Shown here piece by piece: positions 7,764-63,682 of a stretch of DNA of 64,000 nucleotides. The position numbers and the translations under genes are program-made. Source of the DNA: an uncultured Bacilli bacterium (GTDB taxonomy: Bacteria > Bacillota_I > Bacilli_A > RF39 > UBA660); the NCBI GenBank assembly GCA_934130005.1, contig CAKOXD010000003.1, forward strand, positions 41,980 to 105,979. Direction: 5' to 3'. The first letter of the stretch is position 1; every line of letters starts with the position of its first letter. The notes beneath the pieces were generated by a model, which was not told where the DNA came from, did not search any database, and saw only the letters and a list, made by a program, of their open reading frames with translations.

Positions 7764-9092
7764 TTAAAGTTTTTTTACTTTTTCTTTTTTATCAATAAGT
7801 AAAAATTCTTCATATATTTCTTTTAATTTAGCTATTATATCATTTGGATATATAGGATTTCTTATTTCATTTAAAATTTCAATCATTGTTTTATATATTT
7901 TTTTTAAAGTTTCTTCATTTTTTAATTCTTTATATTCACTTTTTAATATTTCAAGATCATTTAAATATTTTTTTATTATATATTCATATACATATATAGG
8001 TTTTTCTAAATCATGATATTTTTTTTCATTTATTGCTTCTTCATCAAATGTCCATCCAGTTAAAATATCTTTTTTAAATTCTTCATTATATTTATTATAA
8101 TCTCCTATTTCTTTTCTTTTACATTTTATTCTATCTTTTATTCTATCATCAAAATATATTTGATATTTTGTATCAGCCATTAACTGTCTTAAATCTTCTA
8201 TAGCATGTGTATATTTAAAGTCATCATTTATATATTTTTTAGGATCAAATATTGTTTTAGATACATTTACTCCATATAATTTACTATTAAATCTCTCTAT
8301 CCCAACTGGTATTATAACAGCATTAGTATATATAGCTACTTTTATCATACCTGGAAATAATTTCGTTACTATTTCATTTGGTGATATATTCCATGCTGCT
8401 TCCATACTACATAGTATATTATCATTATTTTTTAATACTTCTTCAGCTTTCATTGCAATACTATATCTATCTTCTTTTGATTTCATATCAAAATATTTAA
8501 CACCATTTAAAGAAGTTATTAATCCTTCTAAATTATTATGTAAGCTTTCATAATCTCCTGATAGTATTGTATAGTGTTTTTTTATTGCCGTTGTAAATGC
8601 TGATATATCATCTCTTCCAACATGTGTTAATACGAATATAATTGGTCTATTTGTAGTAGGTAATTCTTCATTTAGGGTTACTATTTCTATATTGGAAGCT
8701 TTTAAATTTAGTTGCATAATTTTTCTTAATGTTGGTACTAGTTTTTTTCTTTTTTCTAATGATAGATTATTTATATTATTTAATTCATCATTTAATCTTA
8801 ATTTTTTTAAATACATTTGGTATTCTAATTCATTTAATTTTTGTTCTTCTTTTTCACTTAATCTTTTTACCTCTTTATCTTTATTATTTAAGTAATAATT
8901 TAATAGTTTAGAAAAATCATTACAATCTATTTTTTCTTGTTTTAATCCTTTAGTCCATTTTATTTCTTGTTGTTGTAAATAATAAAATTGTCTTAATTTT
9001 TCTAAATTTTCTTTTGTATATTTATGGTTATTTATTTTTATATCTTTAGATATTAAGGTATCCATATATGAGTTTTTTACTAATCTTGACAT
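7764..9092 (-). CDS. Coiled-coil N-terminal domain + PlsC-like acyltransferase-domain protein (function unknown)
   Basis: The track ORF runs 7764..9128. The probable start is Met13 (ATG 9092..9090), which sits 5 nt from the AGGGGGAT RBS. An N-terminal ~140-aa K/E/L-rich region is followed by HX4D-like THVGRDD and VIIPVGI motifs, consistent with an lysophospholipid-acyltransferase fold. Confidence 0.4.
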
Positions 9093-9190
9093 AATATCCC
9101 CCTTTTTTATAGTTATGTATACTATCATAAATTATATATAAAGTCAAATTTTTGTTCGTAAAAAAAAGGAATTTATTTTTTATTCCTTTT
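9093..9190 (-). promoter_or_regulatory. Promoter cassette A: terminator hairpin, LexA-box-like operator overlapping -35, extended -10 and GGGGG RBS
   Basis: Minus strand reads GGAAT…ATTCC hairpin + T-run, ACGAACAAAAATTTGAC (operator plus TTGACT -35, + coordinates 9143..9159), a 17-nt spacer, TAGTAT (9124..9119) and AAGGGGGAT. It is near-identical to cassette B at 11060..11148. Confidence 0.5.
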
Positions 9191-9875: not shown

Positions 9876-9905
9876 GTCAAAAAAAGACTAATTTTTTAGT
9901 CTTTT
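9876..9905. terminator. Bidirectional terminator hairpin
   Basis: aaaaaaagactaattttttagtcttttt forms the AGACTAA/TTAGTCT stem flanked by A- and T-runs. Confidence 0.5.
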
Positions 9906-11059
9906 TATATTTCTTTTATTTTTTGATATGCTTCTTCAAATATAGATATCTTTTCTTTATTTTTTTCATTTTCTAATGCTAATTCTATATTCATATCGTC
10001 TACTTTTTTTCTTTCGTCTTCTTCAATTTTTAAAGCTTCTTTTAATTGCTCTAATTCTTCTTTTAATTTTTTATTTTCGTCATTTAATGTTGAATAACTA
10101 TTAATGGCTGATTCATTATTTTCTATATAACATAGTGAATTATTACATACATTTATTAGGTTAATTATATCACTATTTAACTCTATATCACCAACTGTTT
10201 CTTCTATAATTGATTCATCAAGTACATTACCACTTTTTATACTATCACTTAATAATCTTAATACATTTATACTAACATAGTGCTCTGTTCTATCATTCTT
10301 TATTTTATTTAATGTATAGTTATAATCTTTTGCGACAGATGCGGTAGCACCATATTTTTGTGATATTTTTATTGTTTTATCTAACAAAGCTTCTTTTGTT
10401 TCTAATGCTAATGAAAATGTATTTTTATATGAATTTTTATAATTTTCTATTTTTATTAAATGTGGATATGTTAATTCTTGTTTACAAGCTATTCTAGATA
10501 TATATTTTTCTAATTCTTGAAAATCATCATATTTTCTTGATGTTGATGGTATATAGTATTTTTCATTTTTAACTACACCTAATACAAAATATTTATTTAA
10601 TTTTTGTCTTACTATATAATAATCACATATTTCTGCTTTATCTTCTAATTTATATGTTTTTTCACTATCATATTTAACAATGGTATAAATATCATCATTT
10701 CTAATATTTATATTATCATTAAATGCTTCTAGTTTTTCATCTATATGTTTTGAAAACATTAAATCAAAACTAAGTTTTCCACTATTTCCTAAATTACCAA
10801 ATGTATATCTATTTTCTATAAAATATTTTAATATTTCATAACTATTCATTCCAGGCTTAAATTTATTTGATAATCTTAAATATTCAATATTTACTCCTAA
10901 TATATGTGGTAAGTTATTTTCAAATAATCTTATATTTAATAAATCTCCATTTGCTAGATAAAGTGTATATTTATTATTTGAAAATTCTATTCTATCATAG
11001 TAGTTTACAAGATTTTCTATTTTATCCATTATTTCATTATATTTTGCTAAATTAATCAT
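9905..11059 (-). CDS. Hypothetical protein with C-terminal coiled coil, expressed from duplicated cassette B
   Basis: 384 aa. I recognised no domain. The C-terminal ~70 aa are K/E-rich heptads. The RBS GGGGG is 6 nt upstream of the ATG. Confidence 0.5.
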   Translation of the reverse strand: MINLAKYNEIMDKIENLVNYYDRIEFSNNKYTLYLANGDLLNIRLFENNLPHILGVNIEYLRLSNKFKPGMNSYEILKYFIENRYTFGNLGNSGKLSFDLMFSKHIDEKLEAFNDNINIRNDDIYTIVKYDSEKTYKLEDKAEICDYYIVRQKLNKYFVLGVVKNEKYYIPSTSRKYDDFQELEKYISRIACKQELTYPHLIKIENYKNSYKNTFSLALETKEALLDKTIKISQKYGATASVAKDYNYTLNKIKNDRTEHYVSINVLRLLSDSIKSGNVLDESIIEETVGDIELNSDIINLINVCNNSLCYIENNESAINSYSTLNDENKKLKEELEQLKEALKIEEDERKKVDDMNIELALENEKNKEKISIFEEAYQKIKEI

Positions 11060-11148
11060 AAAAATCCCCCTTTTTTTATAGTTATGTATACTAACACAAA
11101 ATTTATTTTATGTCAAATTTTTGTTCGTAAAAAAAAGACTATTAGTCT
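11060..11148 (-). promoter_or_regulatory. Promoter cassette B: terminator hairpin, LexA-box-like operator overlapping -35, extended -10 and RBS
   Basis: AGACTAttAGTCT hairpin + T-run, ACGAACAAAAATTTGAC (11112..11128), a 17-nt spacer, TGtTAGTAT and AAGGGGGAT. It duplicates cassette A. Confidence 0.5.
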
Positions 11149-15550: not shown

Positions 15551-16999
15551 ATGTATATAAATGATAAAATATTGATTGGTAAAAATAATGATGATGAGGC
15601 TTATATTTTACCAAATATGGCTAATAGACATGGTATTATTACAGGTGCGAGTGGTTCTGGTAAAACTATTACTTTAAAGGTTATGGCTGAGAGTTTTTCA
15701 GATTGTTCTATTCCTGTTTTATTAATTGATGTTAAAGGTGATTTAGCTGGATTAGCTATTAAGGGTGAAGATAGTATTAACATTCAAAATAGAATTAATA
15801 GTTTAAATTTAGAAAATTTTGAATTTAAAAGTTACCCTACTCATTTTTGGGATATTTATGGAAAGTTTGGGCATCCTATTAGAACTACTATATCTAATAT
15901 AGGTTATAAACTTCTTTCACGTATGCTTAATTTAACAAGTACTCAAGAAGGAGTTTTAGCTATTATATTTAAGATTGCTAGCGATGAAAATATAGAAATA
16001 GTTGATTTAAAAGATTTAAGAAATTTGATTAATTATATTGGTGAAAAAAGAAAAGATTATACATTAAAATATGGAAATATTTCTTTACAAAGTATTGGAG
16101 CAATTGGAAGAGGTTTAATTGCTTTGGAAGAAGAAGGTGGAGATTATTTTTTTGGTAAACCATCATTTAATATTAAGGATTTTATAAAATACAATGGTGA
16201 TGATGGTAGAGGTTTTATAAATATATTAGATGCGACTACCCTATTTAAAAAACCTACTTTATATGCTTCCTTTTTACTTTGGATTCTTGATTCTCTTTAT
16301 AATGAAATGCCTGAAGTTGGAGATTTAAATAAACCTAAACTTGTATTTTTTATCGATGAAGCACATTTACTTTTCAGTGAAATGCCTGATTATATGATCA
16401 AAAATATTGTTAGTATTGTTAAATTAATTCGTTCTAAAGGAATTGGTATTTATTTTATATCTCAAAGTCCAAGTGATATTCCAAATGAAGTATTATCACA
16501 GCTTGGTAATAGAGTTCAACATGTTTTAAGATATTATACTAAGAGTGATGAGAGTGCTATTAAAGCTGCTTGTAATTCCTTTAGAGAAAATCCTTTATTT
16601 AATACTATGGATGAAATTAAATCCTTAGAAACTGGAGAAGCATTGGTTTCATTTTTAAATGATGTTGGGGAGCCTTCTATAGTTTCTAAAGTAACTATAT
16701 TACCTCCTCAAAGTAAAATTGGTACTATTGATTTAGATACTAGAAATAACATTATTAAAAATGATATGTTCTATAATAAATATGAAAAGAAAATTAGTAC
16801 TGAAGATATTACTTTAAAATTTAATAATAAAACTGATGTAAAAGAAAATAATAGATTTTTAAAAAAAGAAAGTGAAGTTAAAACTACTAGAAAGAAAAAA
16901 AGTAGTCTTGAAAAGGCTACTGCTAAAGTTACAAATTCAGCTTTAAATACACTTGGTAGAAAAATAGGAAATTCAATTTTTAAGGGATTATTTAAATAA
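15551..16999 (+). CDS. DUF853/YjgR-like P-loop NTPase (HerA/FtsK-like ATPase fold)
   Basis: 482 aa. GASGSGKT Walker A at the N-terminus, a DEAH-like FIDEAH Walker B and a K-rich C-terminal tail. Confidence 0.7.
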   Translation: MYINDKILIGKNNDDEAYILPNMANRHGIITGASGSGKTITLKVMAESFSDCSIPVLLIDVKGDLAGLAIKGEDSINIQNRINSLNLENFEFKSYPTHFWDIYGKFGHPIRTTISNIGYKLLSRMLNLTSTQEGVLAIIFKIASDENIEIVDLKDLRNLINYIGEKRKDYTLKYGNISLQSIGAIGRGLIALEEEGGDYFFGKPSFNIKDFIKYNGDDGRGFINILDATTLFKKPTLYASFLLWILDSLYNEMPEVGDLNKPKLVFFIDEAHLLFSEMPDYMIKNIVSIVKLIRSKGIGIYFISQSPSDIPNEVLSQLGNRVQHVLRYYTKSDESAIKAACNSFRENPLFNTMDEIKSLETGEALVSFLNDVGEPSIVSKVTILPPQSKIGTIDLDTRNNIIKNDMFYNKYEKKISTEDITLKFNNKTDVKENNRFLKKESEVKTTRKKKSSLEKATAKVTNSALNTLGRKIGNSIFKGLFK

Positions 17000-20884: not shown

Positions 20885-21241
20885 CTAATTATTATTGTTG
20901 TTGTTATTATTGTTATTATTATTATTTGATGATGAACCAGAGTATCCTCCCGAACCACTTGATGAAGTATAATGTGGTGTTATTCTAAATATAGTATTAC
21001 TTATTAATATAGCATCAAATGCACTTGTTTTTGGACTTGCTTCTGTTGTTTTAACAATTTTTGTTCCTTGTTTATAATTTATATACTTATTTGTAGTGTT
21101 TATTGAATTATTTTTATCTTCTGATAAAAAATCATATATTTCATTTAGTTGTTCATCTGTAAGATTAAAATATTTGGATAGTTCATAACATCTTTTCTTT
21201 CTTATGATTTCATTATATGTTTTAGCTTCTTTATTTATCAT
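20885..21241 (-). CDS. Small protein with Ser/Gly/Tyr-rich tail ending in poly-Asn (13 N)
   Basis: 118 aa; …TPHYTSSSGSGGYSGSSSNNNNNNNNNNNNN. Its start overlaps the stop of the upstream radical SAM gene (ATGA). Confidence 0.45.
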   Translation of the reverse strand: MINKEAKTYNEIIRKKRCYELSKYFNLTDEQLNEIYDFLSEDKNNSINTTNKYINYKQGTKIVKTTEASPKTSAFDAILISNTIFRITPHYTSSSGSGGYSGSSSNNNNNNNNNNNNN

Positions 21242-22971
21242 AAATTTTCCTCCTTTAAGTAATAAAATTCTATATTTTGAAATGGTAAATTAATAGCATT
21301 TATATGATAATAAGCATTATTTTTTTGTTTTATATAGTGATAATCTCTTAAAGCATTAGTTGTAAAAAATATGTTATTTGGACTTTCAGTTGATAAGTAA
21401 TTACTATATTCTTTTATAAATTTTGTTATATCATAACAAAGATATTCTGATTTATCGCTTTTATTTTTTTCGAGTACGTTTTTATAGACTTGTAATGAAG
21501 CAATATGTTCTTGTTTTATTCTTCCTTCATCACCATATTGAATTAGATTTCCACTGAGTAATATAATATATAATGAATTATTTAAAGGATAATCACATTC
21601 CATATCAAGTAAATTATTTTTTATATAAAGTTTTATTTTGCTTTCTTCTGTTAAATAAATTATATCTCTTGATTTTTTTATTATTTGTGATTCTAGCTTA
21701 TATTCTGTATCATCAACTTTTAATATAAATGCTTCATCACTATAAATATATTTTAATTTAGGATCTTCATTTATTATGTTATGTAATGTTTTAATATTGT
21801 TTTCTTCTTGTGGAATATATTTTTCTATACTAGAGGGATGCATTTTAGAAACATAAAAATATGTTGAATCTAAATTAGTATCTTTTTCATAATTTCTTTT
21901 TTTATATAATTCTTGTTGTAATTTACATGTATATGATTTGTTGTTTTTATACACATTTTTTACAAATGGGCATCCTGTTTTACAAATATATAAGTATCCA
22001 CATTTACTACATTCATCATTAAATTCAAGTCTATTATGATTTAGAAACATTTTTTCACGTGCTGTTTTAAGTATTTCTTCTACAGTATTATTATATATGT
22101 TTCCAAAATAGTAGTCTTTATTTTTTTGTCCTCTAACACATGAATACATATCACCGTTTTTTTCTAGTAAAAAGAATTTCTCACCACAGTTATCACAGTT
22201 TGTACAATATTCTGGTCCAAATTCATTAAACCAAGCTCCATTTACTCCTTTATCTAAAGATGTTCCATCAAATTCTTTGTGCATTCTATTAAAAAATTCT
22301 ACTTGTTCTTCTTCTGTTAATGGTGTAAGTAAATTATTACTATTAAATTGAAATCCTATCATGAAATTAAAGTCATTCATATCAAGTGATGTATTTTTAT
22401 CTAAAAATTTTATATTTTCTATCATTTCATCTATTAACAAATAATGTTCTTTAAAAATAGTTGCGGATACTTTCTTTTTATTGTTAATATTATTTAATAA
22501 TTCTATATTCTTTAGTATCTTATCAAGCGTTGTTTTATTTCCTTTTGTTACTCTAAATTTATCATGAAGTGAAAATGGTAAATCTAAACTTCCACTTACT
22601 GAGACATTATATTCTTTTATTGTATCTATGTGTTTATCTAAATTATATAAATTTGTTTTTATATGTGGACTTAAGGCTTTAAATCCATTTTCTTCTAACA
22701 GTTTTTTATTTTTTTTATAATAATTATATATATATTCAATTAATTCTCTAAATTCCTCTTTTTTTAGTGTTGTTACTTCTCCACCATGAAGTGATATATT
22801 AAATGGGATCACATTATCTTGCTTTAATTTTTCTACTGTATATTTTAGTGTATCTAATGCGCTATGTTTTGTACTGATATCTTTTGTATTTTCTTCTAAA
22901 TAACAATATTTACATGCCATATTACATGCCATAGTAGGCACATATAATAAATGAATAAATTTATAATCCAT
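21238..22971 (-). CDS. Radical SAM / SPASM-domain protein with uncharacterised ~220-aa C-terminal extension
   Basis: 577 aa. CNMACKYC (CX3CX2C) sits at residues 16-23. A SPASM-like Cys cluster reads CTNCDNCGEKFF…CVRG…CSKCGYLYICKTGCPF. Confidence 0.75.
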   Translation of the reverse strand: MDYKFIHLLYVPTMACNMACKYCYLEENTKDISTKHSALDTLKYTVEKLKQDNVIPFNISLHGGEVTTLKKEEFRELIEYIYNYYKKNKKLLEENGFKALSPHIKTNLYNLDKHIDTIKEYNVSVSGSLDLPFSLHDKFRVTKGNKTTLDKILKNIELLNNINNKKKVSATIFKEHYLLIDEMIENIKFLDKNTSLDMNDFNFMIGFQFNSNNLLTPLTEEEQVEFFNRMHKEFDGTSLDKGVNGAWFNEFGPEYCTNCDNCGEKFFLLEKNGDMYSCVRGQKNKDYYFGNIYNNTVEEILKTAREKMFLNHNRLEFNDECSKCGYLYICKTGCPFVKNVYKNNKSYTCKLQQELYKKRNYEKDTNLDSTYFYVSKMHPSSIEKYIPQEENNIKTLHNIINEDPKLKYIYSDEAFILKVDDTEYKLESQIIKKSRDIIYLTEESKIKLYIKNNLLDMECDYPLNNSLYIILLSGNLIQYGDEGRIKQEHIASLQVYKNVLEKNKSDKSEYLCYDITKFIKEYSNYLSTESPNNIFFTTNALRDYHYIKQKNNAYYHINAINLPFQNIEFYYLKEENL

Positions 22972-22980
22972 ACTACCACC

Positions 22981-24639
22981 CTAATTATAATATAAATATA
23001 ATGAAATAAAATTTGAATATGTATTAAGAGTTTCTACTTTCGATACTTTTACAGCTATATCGGAGTTTATTACTTTATATGGCGTATCTTTAGTTATTGT
23101 AAATGTAGTAACTTCTCCATTCATTTTATATTCCATTATGAATTTTTTTACTCCATTTTCTTCTTTTACTTCTTTTAAAGTCAAAGTTGAGTTATATATT
23201 TTTGAGTCTTTATAATAAACAAAGTTTTTTTCTTCTTTGATAGAGAAAATTGAAAATGCCACATGTTTAAATTTACTTTCATCAAAAAAGCTTACTTTTT
23301 TATTTTCTACTTTTGGTTCTTCTACAGTATTATCTTCTTCACCAAATTGTTTTACAATTGTTGGACTTTCTTTAAATGCTCTTTCATTTATATATATATT
23401 ACTTGGAAGTGTTATAGAATATAATCTACTACATTTTCTAAAAGCGGATGATCCTATTTCATTTAATTTACTGTTTTCTGAAATTTTTACTTCACTTAAA
23501 TTAGTTGCCCCATAAAATGCGTGTCCACCTATTCTTGTAACATTATCTGGTATTTCTATACTTTTTAATGATGTACATTCTTCAAAGGTATTACCTCTAA
23601 TTTCTGTTATATTTTCTGGTAATTTAATACTTTCAAGCGAACTACAATTTTTAAATGCACTTCCATGTATGGAAGTAATATTATCACTTAGATTTATATT
23701 TTTTAATGATTTGCATCCTTCAAAGGTACTTCCATTTATTTCTGTTAATGTATCAGGTAGTTCTATTTTTTCTAATGAAGTACAGTTTTTAAATGCACTT
23801 CCTCCTAAATAATTTAAATTATTAGGAAGTTTTACATAAATTAAATTACTATCATTTAAAAATACTCTTCCTCTTATTTCTTTTATGCTATCTGGTAAAT
23901 ATATTTTTTTTAAGTTTCTTAAATTAGCAAACACATTTCCTCTTATACTTAATACTTTTTTTCCTTTATATGTTTCTGGCACTTTAATTTCTTCTTTATT
24001 TATTAGTCCCATTGTATAAAATCTTAATGAATATCCGTCTTCATATTTTTCATAAAACATCATTGGTTTAAAAAATATAGCCATTGGTAAAATTATTGAT
24101 ATTAAAATAGGAATAATTTTTTTAGCATAATTTGGCATTACTTTATCACTTATAACAGATGATACAACAAGTGAAATATCTTCATCTGGTCTTGCTTTTA
24201 CTTGTTTATAAAGATAATTTACTATATTGTATTTTTTTATAAACATAATATAAACTACTACGTTTAAAATAAGCAAAAGATACATTAAACTTGATATATG
24301 AAAAAATACAGTTGAAAAAATTAAAAAATTTAAAATAGAAAAAATTAAAGTTAAATTAAATTTTCTTTTTTCTATATATTCTATTGCATCTTTATAATTA
24401 TAATTATTTTTTTTGAGTTCTTCTTTTATAAATGTTTTTATTATTTCCTTTTCACTTTTTCTATATATTGGTTCTATATCATTTTGTTCTTGTGATATTA
24501 TACCTGGTATTTTAAGGCTACTTCTACCTTTTTTATTAACTAAAATAACAATAACCATTATAATTATTGGTAAAGAACTAAACATTATCGAAAAAAATGT
24601 TGAAATTAATGTAATAACTAAATTAAAAATCACTTCCAT
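22981..24639 (-). CDS. Multi-TM N-terminal domain + BspA-type leucine-rich repeat (LRR_5) protein
   Basis: 552 aa with about 5 TM helices. At least 7 repeats fit the pattern L.DSI..I…AF..C.SL..I.LP. Confidence 0.65.
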   Translation of the reverse strand: MEVIFNLVITLISTFFSIMFSSLPIIIMVIVILVNKKGRSSLKIPGIISQEQNDIEPIYRKSEKEIIKTFIKEELKKNNYNYKDAIEYIEKRKFNLTLIFSILNFLIFSTVFFHISSLMYLLLILNVVVYIMFIKKYNIVNYLYKQVKARPDEDISLVVSSVISDKVMPNYAKKIIPILISIILPMAIFFKPMMFYEKYEDGYSLRFYTMGLINKEEIKVPETYKGKKVLSIRGNVFANLRNLKKIYLPDSIKEIRGRVFLNDSNLIYVKLPNNLNYLGGSAFKNCTSLEKIELPDTLTEINGSTFEGCKSLKNINLSDNITSIHGSAFKNCSSLESIKLPENITEIRGNTFEECTSLKSIEIPDNVTRIGGHAFYGATNLSEVKISENSKLNEIGSSAFRKCSRLYSITLPSNIYINERAFKESPTIVKQFGEEDNTVEEPKVENKKVSFFDESKFKHVAFSIFSIKEEKNFVYYKDSKIYNSTLTLKEVKEENGVKKFIMEYKMNGEVTTFTITKDTPYKVINSDIAVKVSKVETLNTYSNFISLYLYYN

Positions 24640-26313: not shown

Positions 26314-27411
26314 CTATCTTTGATATCTTGATATATTAAGTATAATTCCCATACTACATAATGTTATTAGTAAACTAGAGCCTCCATAACTTAAAAATGG
26401 AAGTGTTACACCTGTTACTGGTATTAATCCTGTTACTACCATTAAATTTAATAATGCTTGAAATGATAGACCAAAAGTAATACCAAATGCTAAAAATTTA
26501 CCAAATGGTTCTTTTATATTTCTTGATATTTTAAGTCCTTTAATTATAATTATTAAAAATAATGTAGCAACTATTAATATTCCCATAAATCCAAATTCTT
26601 CACTTATAATTGAAAATATAAAATCTGTTTGAGGTTCTGGTAAATAAAAGTGTTTTTGTCTTGAATTTAAAAATCCATATCCAAATAAACCACCTGGACC
26701 TATAGCATATAAACTCTGTATTATTTGAAATCCGCTTCCTAAAGGATCACTCCATGGATTTAAAAAGGATAATATTCTTTTTAATCTATAAGGTGCGACT
26801 ACAATAAGTCCTGTTATTCCAAGTAGTCCTATTAAAAATAAATATATAAAGAATTTTAAATTAACCCCACCTACAAATAATAATCCAATTATTGTTACTA
26901 TTATAATAAATCCTGTTCCAAAATCTGGTTGTAACATAATAAGAGCAAATATAATAAAAGTTATAAATAGAATTGGTAATACACCTTTTTTGATATTCTT
27001 TATTATTTTTTCATTATTGCTTAAATATTTTGATGTAAATATTATAAGTGCCAGTTTACAGGCTTCACTTGGTTGAATTCCAAATGATCCTATTCCAAAC
27101 CAACTACGACTTCCATTTCTAACTGTTCCTATTCCTGGAATTGCTACTAATATTAATAAAATAATACAAGCAAATAATATTATATTGGCTTTTTCATAGT
27201 ATATTTTATAATCTATTTTGCTTATTATTATCATCAAAAACATACCAATTAATAAAAATAATGCTTGATTTTTCACAAATTTAAACGGATCGTTAAATTT
27301 GTATTCTGCCCATACATAAGATGCTGAATAAACCATGATAACTCCAAATATACTAATTGTTAAAATAGCTAAAAATAATGTATAATCTATACTGTTTTTT
27401 TTCATAACCAT
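26314..27411 (-). CDS. FtsW/RodA/SpoVE family peptidoglycan glycosyltransferase (SEDS)
   Basis: The track ORF runs 26314..27489. The likely start is MVMKKNS (27411), where the MraY TGA overlaps the ATG. About 10 TM helices and conserved SEDS blocks (…PSEACKLALII…, …GLLFVGG…). Confidence 0.85.
   Translation of the reverse strand: MVMKKNSIDYTLFLAILTISIFGVIMVYSASYVWAEYKFNDPFKFVKNQALFLLIGMFLMIIISKIDYKIYYEKANIILFACIILLILVAIPGIGTVRNGSRSWFGIGSFGIQPSEACKLALIIFTSKYLSNNEKIIKNIKKGVLPILFITFIIFALIMLQPDFGTGFIIIVTIIGLLFVGGVNLKFFIYLFLIGLLGITGLIVVAPYRLKRILSFLNPWSDPLGSGFQIIQSLYAIGPGGLFGYGFLNSRQKHFYLPEPQTDFIFSIISEEFGFMGILIVATLFLIIIIKGLKISRNIKEPFGKFLAFGITFGLSFQALLNLMVVTGLIPVTGVTLPFLSYGGSSLLITLCSMGIILNISRYQR
26319..26419. 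repeat. Direct repeat copy 2 (authentic 3' end of ftsW/spoVE-family gene)
   Basis: It matches 25605..25705. Confidence 0.8.
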
Positions 27412-28391
27412 ACTCCATAAATTATTGCAAGCATAGATCCTATAAGTCCGATAATCCAAAATAGTTTTACTATATCTCTTTCTTCCCATCCTATTTTTTC
27501 AAATGTATGATGTATTGGAGTCATTAAGAATAACCTTTTATGAGTTAGTTTATAATAATATCTTTGTATTAAGCATGTAAGCGTTTCAAGTACAAAGACA
27601 ATTCCTATTAGTATTAAAAGTAATTCATGTCTAGATAATATAGCAAGTGATCCTAAAGTTGCACCAAGTGCTAAAGACCCAGTGTCTCCCATAAATATTT
27701 TAGCAGGATTTGTATTAAATACTAAAAATCCCATGATACCACCTACTAATATAAAACAGAATAAAGCGATTTCTTCATATCCTTCTAACCATCCAGTATT
27801 ATACATTATTATTCCAAATGTAGTAATTGATATTACTGAAAGACCTCCTGCTAAACCATCTAATCCATCTGTTATGTTTACTGCATTTGAACTTGCTACT
27901 AAAATAAATAAAATAAATAATCCATAAAACCAATTAATATCTAATTTTAAATTTAATGAATGAATCCATAATAGTGGTTCATTATCTGCTTTTAAAAATA
28001 AGTAAAAGAATACAATAGCAACTAGTATTTGAGATATTAATTTTTCTACTTCTGTTAATCCTTTGTTATTATTTCTTTTTATTATTAAATAATCATCTAA
28101 AAATCCTATTAATGAGTATGATAAAAAAGTAAATATTATAATAATAAAATTATAAGTTATACTAATTTTATTTGTAAAATATAAAACAAGAATAGAAAAT
28201 ATTGTTGAAAATATAAATATTAATCCTCCCATTGTTGGAGTATGTGACTTCTTTTTATGTCTTTCTTCTAAATATATACTGAGTCTTTGATTCGCTCTTT
28301 TTTTTAAAATTGGAATTAAGATGATTGCAAATAAAAGAGCTAACATAAATCCTATTAGACTTGCTAATATAGCTTTTGTAAGTATAAGCAT
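27402..28391 (-). CDS. mraY: Phospho-N-acetylmuramoyl-pentapeptide transferase
   Basis: 329 aa and 10 TM. Conserved MraY blocks: NAVNITDGLDGLA, HHTFE…, and D-D-rich loops. Confidence 0.9.
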   Translation of the reverse strand: MLILTKAILASLIGFMLALLFAIILIPILKKRANQRLSIYLEERHKKKSHTPTMGGLIFIFSTIFSILVLYFTNKISITYNFIIIIFTFLSYSLIGFLDDYLIIKRNNNKGLTEVEKLISQILVAIVFFYLFLKADNEPLLWIHSLNLKLDINWFYGLFILFILVASSNAVNITDGLDGLAGGLSVISITTFGIIMYNTGWLEGYEEIALFCFILVGGIMGFLVFNTNPAKIFMGDTGSLALGATLGSLAILSRHELLLILIGIVFVLETLTCLIQRYYYKLTHKRLFLMTPIHHTFEKIGWEERDIVKLFWIIGLIGSMLAIIYGVWL

Positions 28392-28401
28392 TAATTCCCT
28401 C

Positions 28402-30306
28402 CTAACCTAACATTAGTTTTACTACTTCACCTTCTAGTATTCTTTCATTACTACTAGGTGATTGATATATTACTTTTTCTCCTTCTCCTGTATATTCAAC
28501 TTTAAAATCTTTTAATTCCTTTAATGCATCTTTTAATGTTTTCCCTTCTACATTAGGTACTTTTATATATTTTTTATCATTATAATTATATTTTTTTTCA
28601 CTTGCTCCATTTGGTTTTTTAATATTAAGTATCCTAATTGCATCGTTTAATATTACCTTAGCTATAGGTGCTGCTATTGTTCCACCATATTGTGTTGCTC
28701 CCTTGGCGTTATCAATTGCTATATATACAACAACTTCTGGATCATTTGCTGGTAAAAATCCTATAAATGATACTATATAGTTTCCTACCATATATCTTCC
28801 ATCTTTTACTTTTTGAGCAGTCCCTGTTTTTCCTCCTACTCTATAACCATCAATAAAAGCTGTTCTTCCTGTTCCATTTGTTACAACACTTTCAAGTGCA
28901 TATCTTACTTTTTTACTTGTATCTTCGCTTATTACTTTTCTTACAACTTGGGGTTTATTTTCCAGTATTACTGAATTTGTTTCTGGTTCATTTATACTTT
29001 TTACAATATATGGTTTATATAATATTCCACCATTTATTGCTGCACTAACTGCTGTTATTTGTTGAATTGGAGTTACCGATACTCCTTGGCCAAATGCAGT
29101 AGTTGCAAGTTCTACCGGTCCTACTTTGTCTAAACTAAATAATATTCCTTTACTTTCTCCATTTAATTCAACCCCTGTTTTCTTACCAAAACCAAATTTG
29201 TTTATATATTCAAACAATTTTTCTTTTCCTAATTTTTGCCCTATAGTTACAAATCCTGGATTGCAAGAATTCTCTACTACTTGTAGATATGTTTGACTTC
29301 CATGACCACCGTGTTTCCAACATTTAATTCTAGCATTTTCTACTTTTATACTTCCTGAATCATGATAATGGTCATTTTCTAAATCTATTAATTTTTCTTC
29401 TAAGGCACTTGCTAATGATATGATTTTAAATGTACTACCTGGTTCATATGTCATCCACACAGGTAAATTTCTATTTATTTCTTCTACTTTATAATTTTTA
29501 TATTTACTTGGTGAAAAATTAGGACGAGATGATATTGCAAGTATTTCTCCTGTTTTTGGATTCATAGCTATACCCAATGCTTGATCTGGATTATATTTAG
29601 ATACCGCATTATCAAGTTCTCTTTCAAGTGATTCTTGAAGTTCAAAATTTATAGTTAAAGTCATATTCATTCCATCTTGTGGTTTCTCATAACTTTCTTC
29701 TAATTCTAATTTATTTCCTTTTGCATCACTAGCATATTTTATCGAACCATATTCTCCTGTTAAATACTTATCATAAGTAAGTTCTAATCCACTTAATCCT
29801 TGATTATCTATTCCAACAAATCCTATTGTATGAGCTAGCATTTTGTCATATGGATAATATCTTTTCGATTCTTTTATAAGATATACTCCATCTAATTTTA
29901 AGGCATTTATTTTGTCTGCTACTTCATATGATAATCTTCTTCCAATTGGATGAACTCTTTCTATTGATGTTCTTTTATTAACATGTTTGTACATTTCTTC
30001 ATATGATGTATTTAGAATGTTCGCTAATTCTTTAGCAACTACTTTTTTATTTTTGATTTGATTAGGAACTAATACTAATGATACTGTTGTTTTGTTACTT
30101 GCAAGTATTTTGGAATTTCTATCATATATTTTTCCTCTATTTGCTTCTACTGGTAAATTTCTATTCCATAAGGAACTTGCTAAACTATTTAGTTTTCCAT
30201 AACTAATAACTTGAATATAAAATACTTTTAATATTATCACAACAAATAAAACTACTATAAAAAAAGTTATTATTTTAATTCTATTATGTATATTTTTATA
30301 AAACAT
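28402..30306 (-). CDS. Class B penicillin-binding protein (FtsI/SpoVD-like transpeptidase) with C-terminal PASTA
   Basis: 634 aa. STFK, SCN and KTGTA motifs plus a PASTA domain at the C-terminus. Confidence 0.85.
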   Translation of the reverse strand: MFYKNIHNRIKIITFFIVVLFVVIILKVFYIQVISYGKLNSLASSLWNRNLPVEANRGKIYDRNSKILASNKTTVSLVLVPNQIKNKKVVAKELANILNTSYEEMYKHVNKRTSIERVHPIGRRLSYEVADKINALKLDGVYLIKESKRYYPYDKMLAHTIGFVGIDNQGLSGLELTYDKYLTGEYGSIKYASDAKGNKLELEESYEKPQDGMNMTLTINFELQESLERELDNAVSKYNPDQALGIAMNPKTGEILAISSRPNFSPSKYKNYKVEEINRNLPVWMTYEPGSTFKIISLASALEEKLIDLENDHYHDSGSIKVENARIKCWKHGGHGSQTYLQVVENSCNPGFVTIGQKLGKEKLFEYINKFGFGKKTGVELNGESKGILFSLDKVGPVELATTAFGQGVSVTPIQQITAVSAAINGGILYKPYIVKSINEPETNSVILENKPQVVRKVISEDTSKKVRYALESVVTNGTGRTAFIDGYRVGGKTGTAQKVKDGRYMVGNYIVSFIGFLPANDPEVVVYIAIDNAKGATQYGGTIAAPIAKVILNDAIRILNIKKPNGASEKKYNYNDKKYIKVPNVEGKTLKDALKELKDFKVEYTGEGEKVIYQSPSSNERILEGEVVKLMLG

Positions 30307-38472: not shown

Positions 38473-38891
38473 AAATTATTCTCCTTTATATTTTCTTTTA
38501 TTTTATCTATAACAATAAAGAAATTTTCTAATTCTTCATTGGTTATGTTTTTTTTTAATTCTGTTTCTAAATTTATCATTTGTTCTTTTATTATTTTTAT
38601 TTCTTTTTTTATATCAACTGTTAAAAAAATTTCATTAATTCTGTTATTTGTTTCTTTTAAAATAAGATTATTTTTTTCCATTGTCTTTAAAATTCCTGAT
38701 ATAGTTGATCTTCTAAGATTAAATTCTTTTTCTAAGTCTTTTTGATAAGCTTTTTCATTTATTAATAAATAATCTATTATTTTATATTGAATTGGAGTTA
38801 TTATCTTATTGTTATTTTTATACATTAAAAATATTCTTCTTGTTAATAAATTGTTTATATCTTTTATTTCATATCCTATATATCGATTCAT
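38469..38891 (-). CDS. MarR family transcriptional regulator
   Basis: 140 aa with a winged HTH (…QYKIIDYLL…QKDLEKEFNLRRSTISGILKTMEK…). It is the first gene of the ABC operon. Confidence 0.7.
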   Translation of the reverse strand: MNRYIGYEIKDINNLLTRRIFLMYKNNNKIITPIQYKIIDYLLINEKAYQKDLEKEFNLRRSTISGILKTMEKNNLILKETNNRINEIFLTVDIKKEIKIIKEQMINLETELKKNITNEELENFFIVIDKIKENIKENNL

Positions 38892-38984
38892 AATATCACC
38901 TTTGTTAGTTACCTAACATGAATAATTCTACCAAATTAATATATGCAAGTCAATGAAATTTGTGTGAAAAAAAATAAAGTTGTT

Positions 38985-39374
38985 TTACTTTATTTCATAA
39001 TCAATATGTGCTGTTTGGAATAATTCTTCATCAACAAACTCATTTATATTTATTGTTTCTTTCTTTTTTACCGTATCAAGTGATACATCTAATGTCTTTA
39101 TTATATTATTATCACTATCTTTAAATAGAATAGTAAATTTATTTACTTTTATATCTTTATTTGTTTCATTTATTATAGATGTGTCAACAAATGTTTTTCC
39201 ACCACTTATATAAAATGATGCTGTCCCAAATTTTAAATCCTTAACTGTTTTATAATTAACAACAGGTGCATTAGGATCCTTTGTTTCTTCTTTCTTTACT
39301 TTTTTATTATTAGAACAACCTGTAATTAAAAATATTGATAATGTAATTGCTAAAAATATTTTAAATTTTTTCAT
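38985..39374 (-). CDS. Lipoprotein
   Basis: 129 aa with a signal peptide and an LITGCS lipobox. Confidence 0.5.
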   Translation of the reverse strand: MKKFKIFLAITLSIFLITGCSNNKKVKKEETKDPNAPVVNYKTVKDLKFGTASFYISGGKTFVDTSIINETNKDIKVNKFTILFKDSDNNIIKTLDVSLDTVKKKETININEFVDEELFQTAHIDYEIK

Positions 39375-39435
39375 ATTAACATCTCCCTAGTATATGTATA
39401 TTTTATCATAAATTATCATTAATTGTATATAATTT

Positions 39436-39574
39436 TTACTTATTTATTATTAATTCATTACTATCTACTGTTTCATTATTTAATTTTTCTACATTTAATG
39501 AATTAAAGTAAGATACTCCTAATACAAATACAACAAATAAAACTAAAAATTTACTTTTTAACATTTCTTTCATG
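39436..39574 (-). CDS. 45-aa single-TM peptide divergent from lexA (candidate SOS-induced division inhibitor, SosA/YneA-like)
   Basis: MKEMLKSKFLVLFVVFVLGVSYFNSLNVEKLNNETVDSNELIINK. The AAGGAG RBS is 7 nt upstream. It was not in the ORF track (<60 aa). Its promoter region contains the LexA boxes. Confidence 0.35.
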
Positions 39575-39605
39575 CTATCACTCCTTAACTTAGTTTCATT
39601 ATATT

Positions 39606-39711
39606 ACGAACAGTTGTTTGTGTCAATACTTTTTACGAAAAAATGTTTGTTTTTGTATTTTTTATAAAATACGAACAAATATTTGACAAACAAATGAATG
39701 TGTGTTAAACT
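39606..39711. promoter_or_regulatory. lexA control region: three LexA boxes (GAAC-N4-GTTT type) and lexA promoter
   Basis: CGAACAGTTGTTTG (39606..39619), CGAAAAAATGTTTG (39635..39648) and CGAACAAATATTTG (39672..39685). The third overlaps the TTGACA -35 (39683..39688), followed by a 17-nt spacer and TGtgTTAAACT (-10 at 39706..39711). Confidence 0.55.
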
Positions 39712-39738
39712 ATTATTAGTTAAAAAGGAGGTTTTATT

Positions 39739-40356
39739 TTGGTAAGTTTAACTAAAAGACAAGATGAAATTTTAAAATACATTAAAGAATATATAGTAGC
39801 TCATGGATATCCACCTACTATAAGAGAAATTGGTGCTGCACTTGGTATTTCAAGCCCTGCAACTATACATGCTCATTTAAAAAATCTTGAAAAAAAAGGT
39901 TTTATAAGAAAAAATGATTCTAAGAATAGAGCTTTAGAATTACTAGTAAAAAATGAGTTTGCAATTAATGATGAATTAACTGTTGAGGTTCCACTACTTG
40001 GAAAGATTACAGCTGGTAGTCCAATTGAAGCAATTGAACATCCTGATGAATATTTTTCATTACCATCTTATTTAATTCCTAAAAATAAAGAAGTATTTAC
40101 TTTGAATGTTAGTGGTACTAGTATGATAAATGCTGGAATATTAGATGGTGATATTGTTGTAGTTGAAAGAGCAAATACAGCTAGAAATGGTGAAATTGTA
40201 GTAGCAATGACTGATGAAAATGAAGTTACATTAAAAACATTTTATAAAGAAAAAGATCATTTTAGATTACAACCTGAAAATGATACTATGGATCCTATAA
40301 TTTTAAGTAATGTTACTATTTTAGGTAAAGCAATCGGGTTATATAGAAAAATATAA
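39739..40356 (+). CDS. lexA: LexA repressor
   Basis: 205 aa with a TTG start and an AAGGAGG RBS. The N-terminal winged HTH and the C-terminal S24 peptidase (GTSM Ser, …TLKTF Lys) are both present. Confidence 0.9.
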   Translation: MVSLTKRQDEILKYIKEYIVAHGYPPTIREIGAALGISSPATIHAHLKNLEKKGFIRKNDSKNRALELLVKNEFAINDELTVEVPLLGKITAGSPIEAIEHPDEYFSLPSYLIPKNKEVFTLNVSGTSMINAGILDGDIVVVERANTARNGEIVVAMTDENEVTLKTFYKEKDHFRLQPENDTMDPIILSNVTILGKAIGLYRKI

Positions 40357-52546: not shown

Positions 52547-53496
<950 letters not shown>

Positions 53497-57559: not shown

Positions 57560-57592
57560 AAAATAGCTTTTATAAAGCTATTTTATACTAAA
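57560..57592 (-). terminator. Terminator after the LamG pilin-like gene
   Basis: aaaaaatagcttttataaagctatttt forms the ATAGCTT/AAGCTAT stem plus a T-run. Confidence 0.55.
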
Positions 57593-59266
57593 CTCTTTTG
57601 AGTCGAATTCATAGTTGTTTTTAATTTCATTTTCTTCTAGTCCTCTATTATATACTCTTGTTGAATAGATTGATCCATTGAAACAATTACCATCAAGTGG
57701 ATCATATGAAAGCATAAGATTTACTCCACTTTTTGGAGGTGATATTTTTCCTGATATGTCTTTTTTAGATTGTAATTCCCCGTTTAGATATAGTTTTAAT
57801 GTGGTACCATTATAAGTTAATGCTGTATAATATTTTTTATTTAGTTCAATTTCTTTAGATGCAATTTCTTGATATGAACCATTTATATTACAAAGAGTAG
57901 ATAATTTATTTTTCAACATTCTAATTCCACATCCTCCACTTTCAGTGCTTGAAATAATATGTTGATTACTATTTGTTATGTTTTTTGGTTCAAATACAAC
58001 TTCATATGTTATATTTGCTTCTCTTATATTTCCAATTGTCATATATGAATTGTTTCCTGTAAAATTTATTGCATTATTACTTATTTGTGCATTTGATGGT
58101 TTTGCATTATATTGATTACTAGCTAAATTTCTGACAAAATTTATATTTTCTAGATTTTGAAGTCCTATATTATTATTTAAATTATAATATACAAGTAATC
58201 CATTTTGACTTATTTTGTTATCTATTTTATATTCTGTTGATTTAAAATATTTATTTTTATCTACTTGATAGTTATTTAATATTTCTTCTTCTGTAAGTGC
58301 TCTATCATAAAGTCTAGCTGATGCTATAAATCCATTAAAATATGAATCCTCTGCTTTTGATCCATATGGATTAGCCCCTAATGCAAGTTTAGTTGATGAT
58401 TCTGGTTGTTTAAGTTTTTTATTCAAAGTTAATTTACTTTGTAGTTCTCCATTTATATATAGTTTTAAATCAATTTCATCATATGTTAAAATTGCATGAT
58501 AATAATTAAAAGGATTTATATTTTCTTTTGATGAAACTTCTTTATATGATCCATCAATACGACAATATCCATTTATTTTATTATTTTTTAAGTATATAGC
58601 ACACCCTCCTAATTCAGTATTTGAAACTATATCCTGATGATCAGTTGGTGATGAGAATGGTACAAAAGTTGTTTCAAATGTAATCTTTTCTTTATTATAT
58701 TCACCAACTATAGAATAACTATTACTTCCATTATAATATAATCCATAATCAGTTTTTAATGTATTATTATGTTTTATTGTGCTTTCCTTATCATTATAAT
58801 CAAAATTAAACATCAATGCTTTATCATTTATTATTTCTAATTTTGGTTCTTCTATTTTTTTATTACCACATTCTAAAATATTATTTTCATAATTACATAG
58901 ATATCCATTTATTTTTAATGCTACTTTATTTAATTTTTCATTTTCTATAGTTATTTCTATTTCTGTTGGTTTTGTTCCCTTTACTGTTTTATTAATTGAC
59001 CCAATAAAGCCAGTTGTTAATTTATCACAATCTTTATCACATGACTCTGATTTTATTAATTTTTTATTATAATTTTTATTATCAAATTCAGATAGCATTA
59101 TGTAATTTTCTATTGATTTTATATATCCATATGCTGAATCTTTTGCAGCTTCTCTTCTTGAATCTTCAATTATATTTAAAATAATTGGAGTTGCAATTAA
59201 TGCAATGATTGCTAATATTACTATGACTGCTAATAGTTCTATTAGTGTGAATCCCTTTTTTTCCAT
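57578..59266 (-). CDS. Large prepilin-type (type IV pilin-like) protein with two C-terminal LamG/lectin-like domains
   Basis: 562 aa. MEKKGFTLIELLAVIVILAIIALIATPIIL is a class III signal with Gly-Phe and Glu+5. Two about 190-aa repeats follow, each ending …GFIASARLYDRALTEEEILNNY / …GSIYSTRVYNRGLEENEIKNNY (concanavalin-like). Confidence 0.6.
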   Translation of the reverse strand: MEKKGFTLIELLAVIVILAIIALIATPIILNIIEDSRREAAKDSAYGYIKSIENYIMLSEFDNKNYNKKLIKSESCDKDCDKLTTGFIGSINKTVKGTKPTEIEITIENEKLNKVALKINGYLCNYENNILECGNKKIEEPKLEIINDKALMFNFDYNDKESTIKHNNTLKTDYGLYYNGSNSYSIVGEYNKEKITFETTFVPFSSPTDHQDIVSNTELGGCAIYLKNNKINGYCRIDGSYKEVSSKENINPFNYYHAILTYDEIDLKLYINGELQSKLTLNKKLKQPESSTKLALGANPYGSKAEDSYFNGFIASARLYDRALTEEEILNNYQVDKNKYFKSTEYKIDNKISQNGLLVYYNLNNNIGLQNLENINFVRNLASNQYNAKPSNAQISNNAINFTGNNSYMTIGNIREANITYEVVFEPKNITNSNQHIISSTESGGCGIRMLKNKLSTLCNINGSYQEIASKEIELNKKYYTALTYNGTTLKLYLNGELQSKKDISGKISPPKSGVNLMLSYDPLDGNCFNGSIYSTRVYNRGLEENEIKNNYEFDSKEFSIK

Positions 59267-62341: not shown

Positions 62342-63610
62342 TTATTTTCCAACATATGTTATTTTAACATATCCATTTCCTTTTTTTGCATAATTACTTA
62401 TCGGTGTTTCTGACGCATTTGTAGTTGATATAGTTTTAGTTGCTTCTTCATTTGATTCCTTACAATTATAACAATACATTGCTTTTTCTTTTAACGATGC
62501 ATTACCAATATATGAAGAGCCACCACCACCAGAGCCAGCTCTAGCTCCAGAACTGCTTATCCAAGCTCCACCAGATCCACCATAAAATCCAGCTCCGCCT
62601 CCACCGGCCCAATATTTGCCAGAAGCACCATTTAAATTTTCTGCATTTGACCCATAACCAAAACCGCCAATCACAGTTGCATCATTAGATCCAGATGGTT
62701 TCATTCCTCCTGCTGTCTGTGTTCCACCATAACCATAATATGACTCAAGACCTATTCCATCTACTCCAATATATCCACCTGCACTTCCACCAGCATTTTT
62801 TTCTTCAGAGACTCCACCTCCCCCTCCAGATACAATTAAAATTGAGGGAATATCTTCTGATAATTCTTTTAATAATCCACTTTTTGTTGCAATATGAGTT
62901 GCTCCGCCTCCTCCTAATGCAAGATTATTATAGTTACTATTTACATTGGCGTTTCCTCCTCCATTATATCCACCAACATAATTATTACTTGTTCCTCCTA
63001 CTTGCAAATATAGTATATCATCTTTTTTCAATTGGATTTTTCCTGTTGAATATCCACCATATCCACCTATTTTATTATCACTTTCAATAGTGCCTCCTTG
63101 GGCTCCCCATGTTTCAAGTAAATATATACCATTTGCAGGGATTGTAAGAATCTGTTCATTACCTGTATAATCAAATTCGTATACTTTTCCAACTAAACTC
63201 TCATCTATATCACTATTTTCTTTTGAATTACATTTTCCTGTTACCTCTGCTTTTTTAGAGTCATATTCTACAGTATATCCACTTATACATAATGATGCAT
63301 TAACTACTCTTTTCTTACTTATTGATATTTTACCACTATCAGGTTTTGTTCCCTTAACATTTATATTTGTTATTGTACTTATATCAATATCTTCCCCATC
63401 TTCTATTAATGAATATTTATCTTTGTTTATCATATTCATTGAATTATTATATTCAACTGCTTCTATATATCCGTATGCACTATCTACTGCTGCACTTTTT
63501 CTTGCATTATTTATCATGTTTAATATTATTGGTGTTGCGATTAATGCGATGATTGCTAATATCACTATTACTGCTAATAGTTCTATTAATGTAAAACCTC
63601 TTTTTTTCAT
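62342..63610 (-). CDS. Large prepilin-type (type IV pilin-like) protein with C-terminal Gly-rich domain
   Basis: The track ORF runs 62342..63664. The likely start is MKKRGFTLIELLAVIV (ATG at 63610), which has an AGGA RBS. Its first ~60 aa are near-identical to 57578..59266. The C-terminal ~200 aa are GGxGG/GSGG repeats. Confidence 0.6.
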   Translation of the reverse strand: MKKRGFTLIELLAVIVILAIIALIATPIILNMINNARKSAAVDSAYGYIEAVEYNNSMNMINKDKYSLIEDGEDIDISTITNINVKGTKPDSGKISISKKRVVNASLCISGYTVEYDSKKAEVTGKCNSKENSDIDESLVGKVYEFDYTGNEQILTIPANGIYLLETWGAQGGTIESDNKIGGYGGYSTGKIQLKKDDILYLQVGGTSNNYVGGYNGGGNANVNSNYNNLALGGGGATHIATKSGLLKELSEDIPSILIVSGGGGGVSEEKNAGGSAGGYIGVDGIGLESYYGYGGTQTAGGMKPSGSNDATVIGGFGYGSNAENLNGASGKYWAGGGGAGFYGGSGGAWISSSGARAGSGGGGSSYIGNASLKEKAMYCYNCKESNEEATKTISTTNASETPISNYAKKGNGYVKITYVGK

Positions 63611-63682
63611 TCTATTCCTACTTTCTACTACATATAGTATAATAAAAAAACTAACTTTTTTCAAGCTGTTTTTTGAAGTATA

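Follow-up and report, generated by a model that had tools for sequence, protein, structure and literature searches.

Small membrane proteins that are induced by the SOS response and inhibit cell division are now viewed as a common bacterial solution, of which a handful have been characterized, with mutually unrelated sequences. The lexA-divergent genes of Bacillus, Listeria, Staphylococcus, Mycobacterium and Corynebacterium encode SOS-induced division inhibitors that have one membrane span and an outside C-terminus and share little sequence (PMC6851548). The membrane helix of YneA docks on transmembrane segment 7 (TM7) of FtsW and blocks septal wall synthesis, and AlphaFold 3 suggests like docking for SosA, ChiZ and SidA (PMC13396833). 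Here we describe a candidate of this kind in a 64-kb stretch of DNA (the window) from an uncultured Bacilli bacterium of the RF39 lineage: a gene for a 45-amino-acid (aa) membrane peptide that diverges from lexA. The literature already leads one to expect a division inhibitor opposite lexA, and the locus would extend a known rule, not overturn it.

A preliminary description of this DNA had reported a 45-aa open reading frame (ORF) with a good ribosome-binding site (RBS) divergent from lexA, and the ORF, its RBS and the identity of lexA all hold. The core of the locus, with distances in nucleotides (nt), is as follows.

39436..39573, minus strand: the peptide ORF, 45 aa, MKEMLKSKFLVLFVVFVLGVSYFNSLNVEKLNNETVDSNELIINK, taken from the ORF listing and the sequence.
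39581..39586, minus strand: Shine-Dalgarno sequence AAGGAG of the peptide gene, 7 nt 5' of the ATG.
39739..40356, plus strand: lexA, with a TTG start and the RBS AGGAGG 7 nt upstream.

The two genes are oriented divergently, and a 165-nt spacer separates their starts. The neighbor's product matches both Pfam LexA_DNA_bind (PF01726) and Peptidase_S24 (PF00717) and scores 234 bits against the NCBIfam TIGR00498 equivalog, for which the cut-off is 111; by these matches the gene is a bona fide lexA. The peptide begins with a basic N-terminus (MKEMLKSK), continues in a hydrophobic span from about residue 9 to residue 23-28, and closes with a polar, acidic tail of 17-22 aa whose final residues are LIINK. 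Gene callers predict the ORF in publicly available contigs from this species, and an NCBI homolog, 84% identical, carries the label ‘hypothetical protein’. The gene is single-copy: a profile of the family run against the six-frame translation of the window returned it at E = 5e-17, with a runner-up at E = 0.19.

Conservation of the small ORF at the lexA loci of relatives, which the preliminary description had named as a check, came out strongly positive. We compared the 80 closest lexA loci from a species-level genome collection (LexA 63-86% identical), surveying ORFs in each relative over the 900 nt upstream of lexA, read as the reverse complement; one locus had too little flank to judge, leaving 79 informative. 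All 80 belong to metagenome-assembled genomes of uncultured ‘Bacilli’, ‘Mycoplasmatota’ or ‘Tenericutes’, among them Candidatus Faecisoma and Firmicutes bacterium CAG:460, and contigs with an identical LexA derive from gut metagenomes. Such organisms are mostly predicted to retain a peptidoglycan wall (PMC10868615). A like-built peptide diverges from lexA in 67 of the 79 informative loci, and in two further loci it lies about 0.9 kb away. The relatives’ peptides measure 42-57 aa, apart from three truncated ones of 28-34 aa, and each copy starts with ATG, behind a GGAG-type RBS at like spacing. Their common build is an N-terminus of the form M-K/E-E-M/L-L-K-S/N-K, an uncharged span of about 18 aa, in most cases including a glycine, and then 14-28 aa of polar tail. 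The distance from peptide start to lexA start is mostly 118-157 nt (range 118-230, and about 320 where an extra small ORF is present). The reciprocal test agreed: two family members found by profile search alone, P0019 and P0099, lie about 130 nt from lexA and diverge from it. The ratio of nonsynonymous to synonymous substitution rates (dN/dS), calculated by the Nei-Gojobori method for same-length pairs at 60-98% identity, was 0.11-0.52 in 28 of 28 pairs. The peptide is under purifying selection, and judged by these comparisons the ORF is a real, conserved gene.

The spacer between the two genes holds two promoters and three LexA-type boxes.

39598..39626, minus strand: sigma-70 promoter of the peptide gene, TTGACA-17-TATAAT, matching the consensus at 12/12 positions in a sigma-70 promoter scan (-35 hexamer at 39626-39621, -10 hexamer at 39603-39598).
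39607..39620, no strand assigned: LexA box 1, CGAACAGTTGTTTG (14 nt), an exact GAAC-N4-GTTT that fills the spacer of the peptide promoter.
39636..39649, no strand assigned: LexA box 2, CGAAAAAATGTTTG, a degenerate GAAA-N4-GTTT between both promoters.
39672..39685, no strand assigned: LexA box 3, CGAACAAATATTTG, GAAC-N4-ATTT, overlapping the -35 hexamer of the lexA promoter.
39683..39711, plus strand: lexA promoter, TTGACA-17-TAAACT with a TG extension.

The peptide promoter is the sole 12/12 sigma-70 consensus match in the region. Because its -10 hexamer ends 24 nt before the ATG, the predicted leader is only about 17 nt long. A search of the whole window for CGAAC-N4-GTTCG with up to 2 mismatches gave five matches where 1.26 were expected, three of them within 79 nt in the lexA spacer. 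The preliminary description had counted three GAAC-N4-GTTT boxes here; three LexA-type boxes are indeed present, but only box 1 has that exact form. All three are invariant across same-species sequences, in which the flanking T-runs vary. From their placement, box 1 would be the operator that represses the peptide gene and box 3 the autoregulatory operator of lexA, and LexA very probably switches the peptide gene off.

The same arrangement recurs in relatives, as counted over 68 loci, the window among them. A TTGACA-17-TAnnAT promoter stands at a matching distance from the peptide gene in nearly all of them, its -10 hexamer ending 19-30 nt 5' of the peptide ATG across loci. In 53 of 68 loci this promoter contains or abuts a box that has no more than 2 mismatches, and 52 of 68 have a second box at the lexA promoter; most relatives have these two boxes only, compared with three in the window. 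In the six loci that carry an extra ORF, the box shifts together with the promoter.

That extra ORF, of 60-75 aa (MEYYTI(K/N)DIQ(L/I)LTG...), sits between the LexA-boxed promoter and the peptide gene in six related species (loci L038, L039, L054, L055, L057 and L058). Together with the peptide gene it forms a two-gene unit on the strand opposite lexA, at about 100-320 nt upstream, and no Pfam family matches it. Elsewhere in the window, an 18-mer in which a LexA-type box is fused to a -35 hexamer, TACGAACAAAAATTTGAC, occurs on the minus strand at 9143-9160 and again at 11112-11129. Both copies lie within near-identical blocks of about 60 nt that precede ORFs 7764..9128 and 9905..11059, and both share the design of lexA’s own operator, TACGAACAAATATTTGAC, at 39670-39687 (three matches, with 0.03 expected). 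The two ORFs are unrelated to one another and without a Pfam family; they may be further members of the SOS regulon.

Of 68 family sequences, 60 carry a net positive charge at the N-terminus; the uncharged span measures 18.5 aa at the median, in peptides of 46 aa median length, and 43 of 64 tails have a net negative charge. From these sequence features the peptide is predicted to be bitopic, with its N-terminus inside and its C-terminus outside. AlphaFold2 returns one single long helix, with a predicted local distance difference test (pLDDT) score of 92 in the membrane span, and the helix holds a conserved mid-helix glycine; the model is little informative on the tail. Within the family, conserved positions are found in the membrane helix, in a juxtamembrane (K/R)(L/M/F)(D/E/N) motif of the outside tail and in a C-terminal hydrophobic-x-hydrophobic-polar motif, the last present in 47 of 64 sequences.

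We next consider how far the family reaches. A single-sequence homology search recovered two proteins only, and a profile was needed to reach further. Run against 5.8 billion proteins, the profile gave 170 matches, all of 44-69 aa, unnamed or labeled ‘hypothetical protein’, and without a Pfam domain. A HMMER profile run against 1.84 billion cluster representatives matched at least 268 clusters (50% identity) at E <= 1e-3, and the best 150 of these 268 are all unnamed proteins of 43-84 aa from uncultured Bacilli. We considered the relatives of 63-84 aa as a separate architecture and rejected this, as they are N-terminal over-extensions or have frameshifted ends. Among the profile matches listed from the two collections, none was a named or Staphylococcus-labeled protein. 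Scans of the peptide itself gave no meaningful match in NCBIfam, in PHROGs (best E = 0.087) or in a sequence search of the PDB (best E = 0.43, a potassium-channel helix). On the strength of these searches, the peptide represents a new and large family by sequence, which would join a class already defined by function and position, that of YneA, SosA, DivS and ChiZ.

The genes that follow the peptide on its strand point to an old arrangement. Across 55 loci the next gene encodes transketolase in 23, a UPF0154 (YneF-family) protein in 6 and DNA polymerase I in 5, the rest being varied. In B. subtilis we take the order to be lexA and then yneA-yneB-ynzC-tkt-yneE-yneF. Of these genes, ynzC and yneF bear the locus tags BSU17880 and BSU17910 (PMC3814617). 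Because tkt- and yneF-type genes follow it, the peptide gene appears to occupy the yneA/sosA slot of a gene order that is old in the Bacilli.

In the window species the downstream region is different.

38985..39374, minus strand: lipoprotein gene, 129 aa, lipobox LITGC, 61 nt downstream of the peptide gene.

The preliminary description had noted a lipoprotein gene immediately downstream on the same strand, and it is there, but it is confined to one species and forms no conserved module. A terminator scan found no terminator between the two genes, the best hairpin reaching -3 kcal/mol, so the lipoprotein may be cotranscribed with the peptide in this species. Its homologs are restricted to contigs of the same species (L001-L008), with none at the loci of 80 other species; being species-specific, it was rejected as a functional partner and regarded as a passenger. 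The segment 34422..39374 (minus strand) carries this lipoprotein, a MarR-family regulator and two ATP-binding cassette exporters where relatives have transketolase, and homologs of the MarR regulator are likewise found only in same-species contigs, which suggests a lineage-specific insertion or rearrangement. Two other variants of the neighborhood deserve mention. In one sub-lineage, whose peptides have the motif DRIERLD (L078, L080, L081, L084, L086 and L089-L095), polA begins 25-55 nt after the peptide gene and may therefore be cotranscribed from the LexA-controlled promoter. In L052, a locus without the peptide, a 184-aa ORF stands in the divergent position 121 nt upstream of lexA; by eye, we take its N-terminus to resemble that of DNA-3-methyladenine glycosylase I.

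By analogy with the inhibitors encoded opposite lexA elsewhere, we propose with moderate confidence that the peptide is a LexA-repressed checkpoint peptide, an SOS-induced division inhibitor that would stall the septal synthase formed by FtsW and a penicillin-binding protein (PBP). The preliminary description had put forward a SosA/YneA-like division inhibitor. Position, LexA-box promoter, topology and synteny bear that likeness out; sequence family and LysM do not. We infer LexA binding, induction by damage, the inhibition of division itself and the identity of the target, and picture the sequence of events as follows. The peptide gene would be the first gene of a LexA-repressed unit diverging from lexA. 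In the undamaged cell, LexA seated on box 1, between the -35 and -10 hexamers, would keep it off. Upon DNA damage, RecA-stimulated self-cleavage of LexA would free the promoter, and with a short unstructured leader and a strong RBS the peptide would be made at once. It would then insert in the membrane, where its helix and short outside tail may bind the late division machinery, most probably the polymerase FtsW of the shape, elongation, division and sporulation (SEDS) family together with a class B PBP. Septal wall synthesis would thereby be halted until the cell has finished repair.

Candidates for both partners are encoded in the window.

26314..27489, minus strand: SEDS glycosyltransferase of FtsW/SpoVE type (Pfam FTSW_RODA_SPOVE, E = 1e-116).
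28402..30306, minus strand: class B PBP with a PASTA domain (Pfam Transpeptidase, PBP_dimer and PASTA), above the NCBIfam SpoVD equivalog cut-off.

They belong to a cluster of division and cell-wall type at 26314..30306 (minus strand) that comprises the class B PBP, MraY and the SEDS protein. The SEDS protein is above the NCBIfam cut-off for FtsW and scores higher for SpoVE, where it falls 1.6 bits under the cut-off. It is plausible that these two proteins form the peptide’s target complex.

Several observations weigh against this proposal. The SEDS protein and the PBP score best against the sporulation paralogs SpoVE and SpoVD, and the pair may serve sporulation and not division. A Pfam scan of the peptide returned nothing at E <= 1, LysM included. 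In 10 of the 79 informative loci no peptide gene was found within 3 kb of lexA. The tail is poorly conserved in sequence across the family, and AlphaFold2 models it with low confidence (pLDDT 50-57). The helix of B. subtilis YneA, expressed alone, localizes to the septum and does not block division, for which the LysM domain is required. E. coli, moreover, has LexA-controlled small hydrophobic membrane proteins, TisB and DinQ, that are toxins. Given that the peptide has no LysM and that the YneA helix alone is inactive, it would have to work in the manner of SosA or SidA.

The main rival, judged less likely and in our view quite improbable, is an SOS-induced membrane toxin like TisB or DinQ, whose action after DNA damage would dissipate the proton-motive force and lead to growth arrest or persistence in place of a specific division block. 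The peptide is small, hydrophobic and, as predicted, LexA-controlled like TisB, with a weakly conserved tail and no recognizable domain. TisB and DinQ, however, are paired with an antisense RNA antitoxin and a long structured leader, and the tisB primary transcript is translationally inert. At the peptide locus the predicted leader of about 17 nt leaves a strong RBS exposed, its fold being weak (-6.4 kcal/mol) and the RBS mostly unpaired. Promoter-like sites on the antisense strand are not conserved: 7 of 68 loci have one, fewer than the 20 of 68 with such a site on the sense strand of these segments, which gives the background. No antitoxin RNA was found, an unconventional small RNA still being conceivable, and an Rfam scan of 38800-40000 returned one chance-level small nucleolar RNA match only. 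The toxin reading also sits poorly with a single-copy gene in a slot syntenic with yneA/sosA, and with an outside tail that keeps its juxtamembrane and C-terminal motifs. Small membrane proteins often modulate larger partners, and another SOS-induced membrane role, as a regulator or anchor of a protease, transporter or repair factor or as a helper of the downstream gene, is unlikely but conceivable. The presence of polA as the next gene in some lineages would fit a general damage operon. Yet the downstream genes vary (transketolase, UPF0154, polA, the lipoprotein and others) and include no conserved single partner, and every characterized gene in this slot in Gram-positive bacteria is a division inhibitor (PMC6851548).

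The remaining two readings concern what the ORF yields. We consider it very unlikely that the N-terminal part is a cleavable signal peptide and that, following DNA damage, the cell secretes the remaining 22 aa or so as a signal or an antimicrobial. That part is signal-peptide-like, with a strongly hydrophobic core of about 15 aa in the window’s copy (FLVLFVVFVLGVSYF), and its G-V-S fits the -3/-1 rule; across the family, however, a small-x-small signal-peptidase site near the end of the span is found in 12 of 68 sequences and an AxA site in 1 of 68, with an uncharged span of 18.5 aa at the median. The mature product would, besides, be acidic, polar and free of cysteines, unlike known bacteriocins and pheromones, and no modification enzymes lie nearby. 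A chance ORF, or a leader ORF whose translation alone matters, might be suggested by the shortness of the frame, the 22% G+C content of the DNA and the lack of any family match. This reading is effectively refuted by dN/dS values of at most 0.52 in 28 of 28 pairs and by length, topology and motifs that are kept across at least 268 clusters at 50% identity, and the genes that such a leader would ‘lead’ are not conserved.

Returning to the inhibitor, we would tentatively go one step further, to a proposal that is possible and still doubtful: the peptide family may be the replacement for YneA across an RF39-like clade of gut Bacilli, a minimal FtsW inhibitor made of a helix and a tail of about 20 residues ending in hydrophobic-x-hydrophobic-N and lacking a peptidoglycan-binding domain. 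Inhibition independent of LysM would in that case be common among Bacilli and not special to staphylococci, and hundreds of natural variants would be available for mapping how a tiny peptide stops septal wall synthesis.

Other features of the window are listed here for completeness. Its G+C content is 20-28%, its genes are nearly all on the minus strand and its GC skew is negative throughout; lexA and a gene for a HerA-like ATPase (15551..16999) are among the few plus-strand genes. At 20885..22971 (minus strand), a radical S-adenosylmethionine/SPASM enzyme of 577 aa is accompanied by a 118-aa ORF just downstream, which could be a peptide-modification locus. Surface proteins are notably many for a small genome (1752..3794, 22981..24639, 52564..53472, 57578..59266 and 62342..63664). 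They comprise a thioester-domain/SpaA adhesin, a BspA-type leucine-rich-repeat protein, a collagen-repeat protein and two large proteins with type IV pilin N-methylation motifs, one with a Laminin_G_3 domain and one with an ALK/LTK glycine-rich domain.

The locus adds a large family, so far without a name, from a gut lineage that is uncultured and has reduced genomes, and it allows a first look at how LexA operators and the regulon are designed in such organisms. As the shortest Gram-positive candidate so far, the peptide brings into focus the minimum required for inhibiting FtsW, an antibiotic target.

How, then, does the peptide compare with the systems already described? With YneA of B. subtilis and Listeria and ChiZ of Mycobacterium it shares the lexA-adjacent slot, a LexA box in the promoter and a single-pass topology, and with YneA also the syntenic neighborhood, with tkt and yneF downstream. 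YneA, however, needs a peptidoglycan-binding LysM domain, for which the peptide’s tail is too short; lacking LysM, the peptide is by this measure not a member of the YneA/ChiZ family. Like the E. coli type I toxins TisB and DinQ, which are LexA-repressed and very small hydrophobic membrane peptides, it is short and presumably silenced by LexA; unlike it, these toxins lie outside the lexA-divergent slot, and the antisense antitoxin and long leader that accompany them were not found at the peptide locus.

SidA of Caulobacter crescentus (29 aa) is alphaproteobacterial, has no detectable homology to the peptide and almost no outside tail, and is not known to be encoded beside lexA in the same arrangement. 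It is nonetheless alike as a minimal SOS-induced membrane peptide that hits late division proteins and not FtsZ (PMC6851548), and, as a predicted binder of FtsW TM7 (PMC13396833), it shows that a peptide of such size can suffice. The last comparison is with SosA of S. aureus. At 77 aa, with an outside tail of about 47, SosA is longer than the 45-aa peptide with its tail of 17-22 aa. Taking the SosA family to comprise proteins of about 77 aa with 25-60% identity to staphylococcal SosA, the peptide differs in length, and our profile searches, made without a direct alignment, showed no sequence relationship among the matches listed. In build and setting the two agree: SosA, too, diverges from lexA, is LexA-controlled, and has an N-terminal span, an extracellular C-terminus and no LysM domain (PMC6851548). 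Conserved positions in SosA cluster next to the membrane on its outer side and at the very end of the C-terminus (PMC6851548), and the peptide family displays the same pattern.

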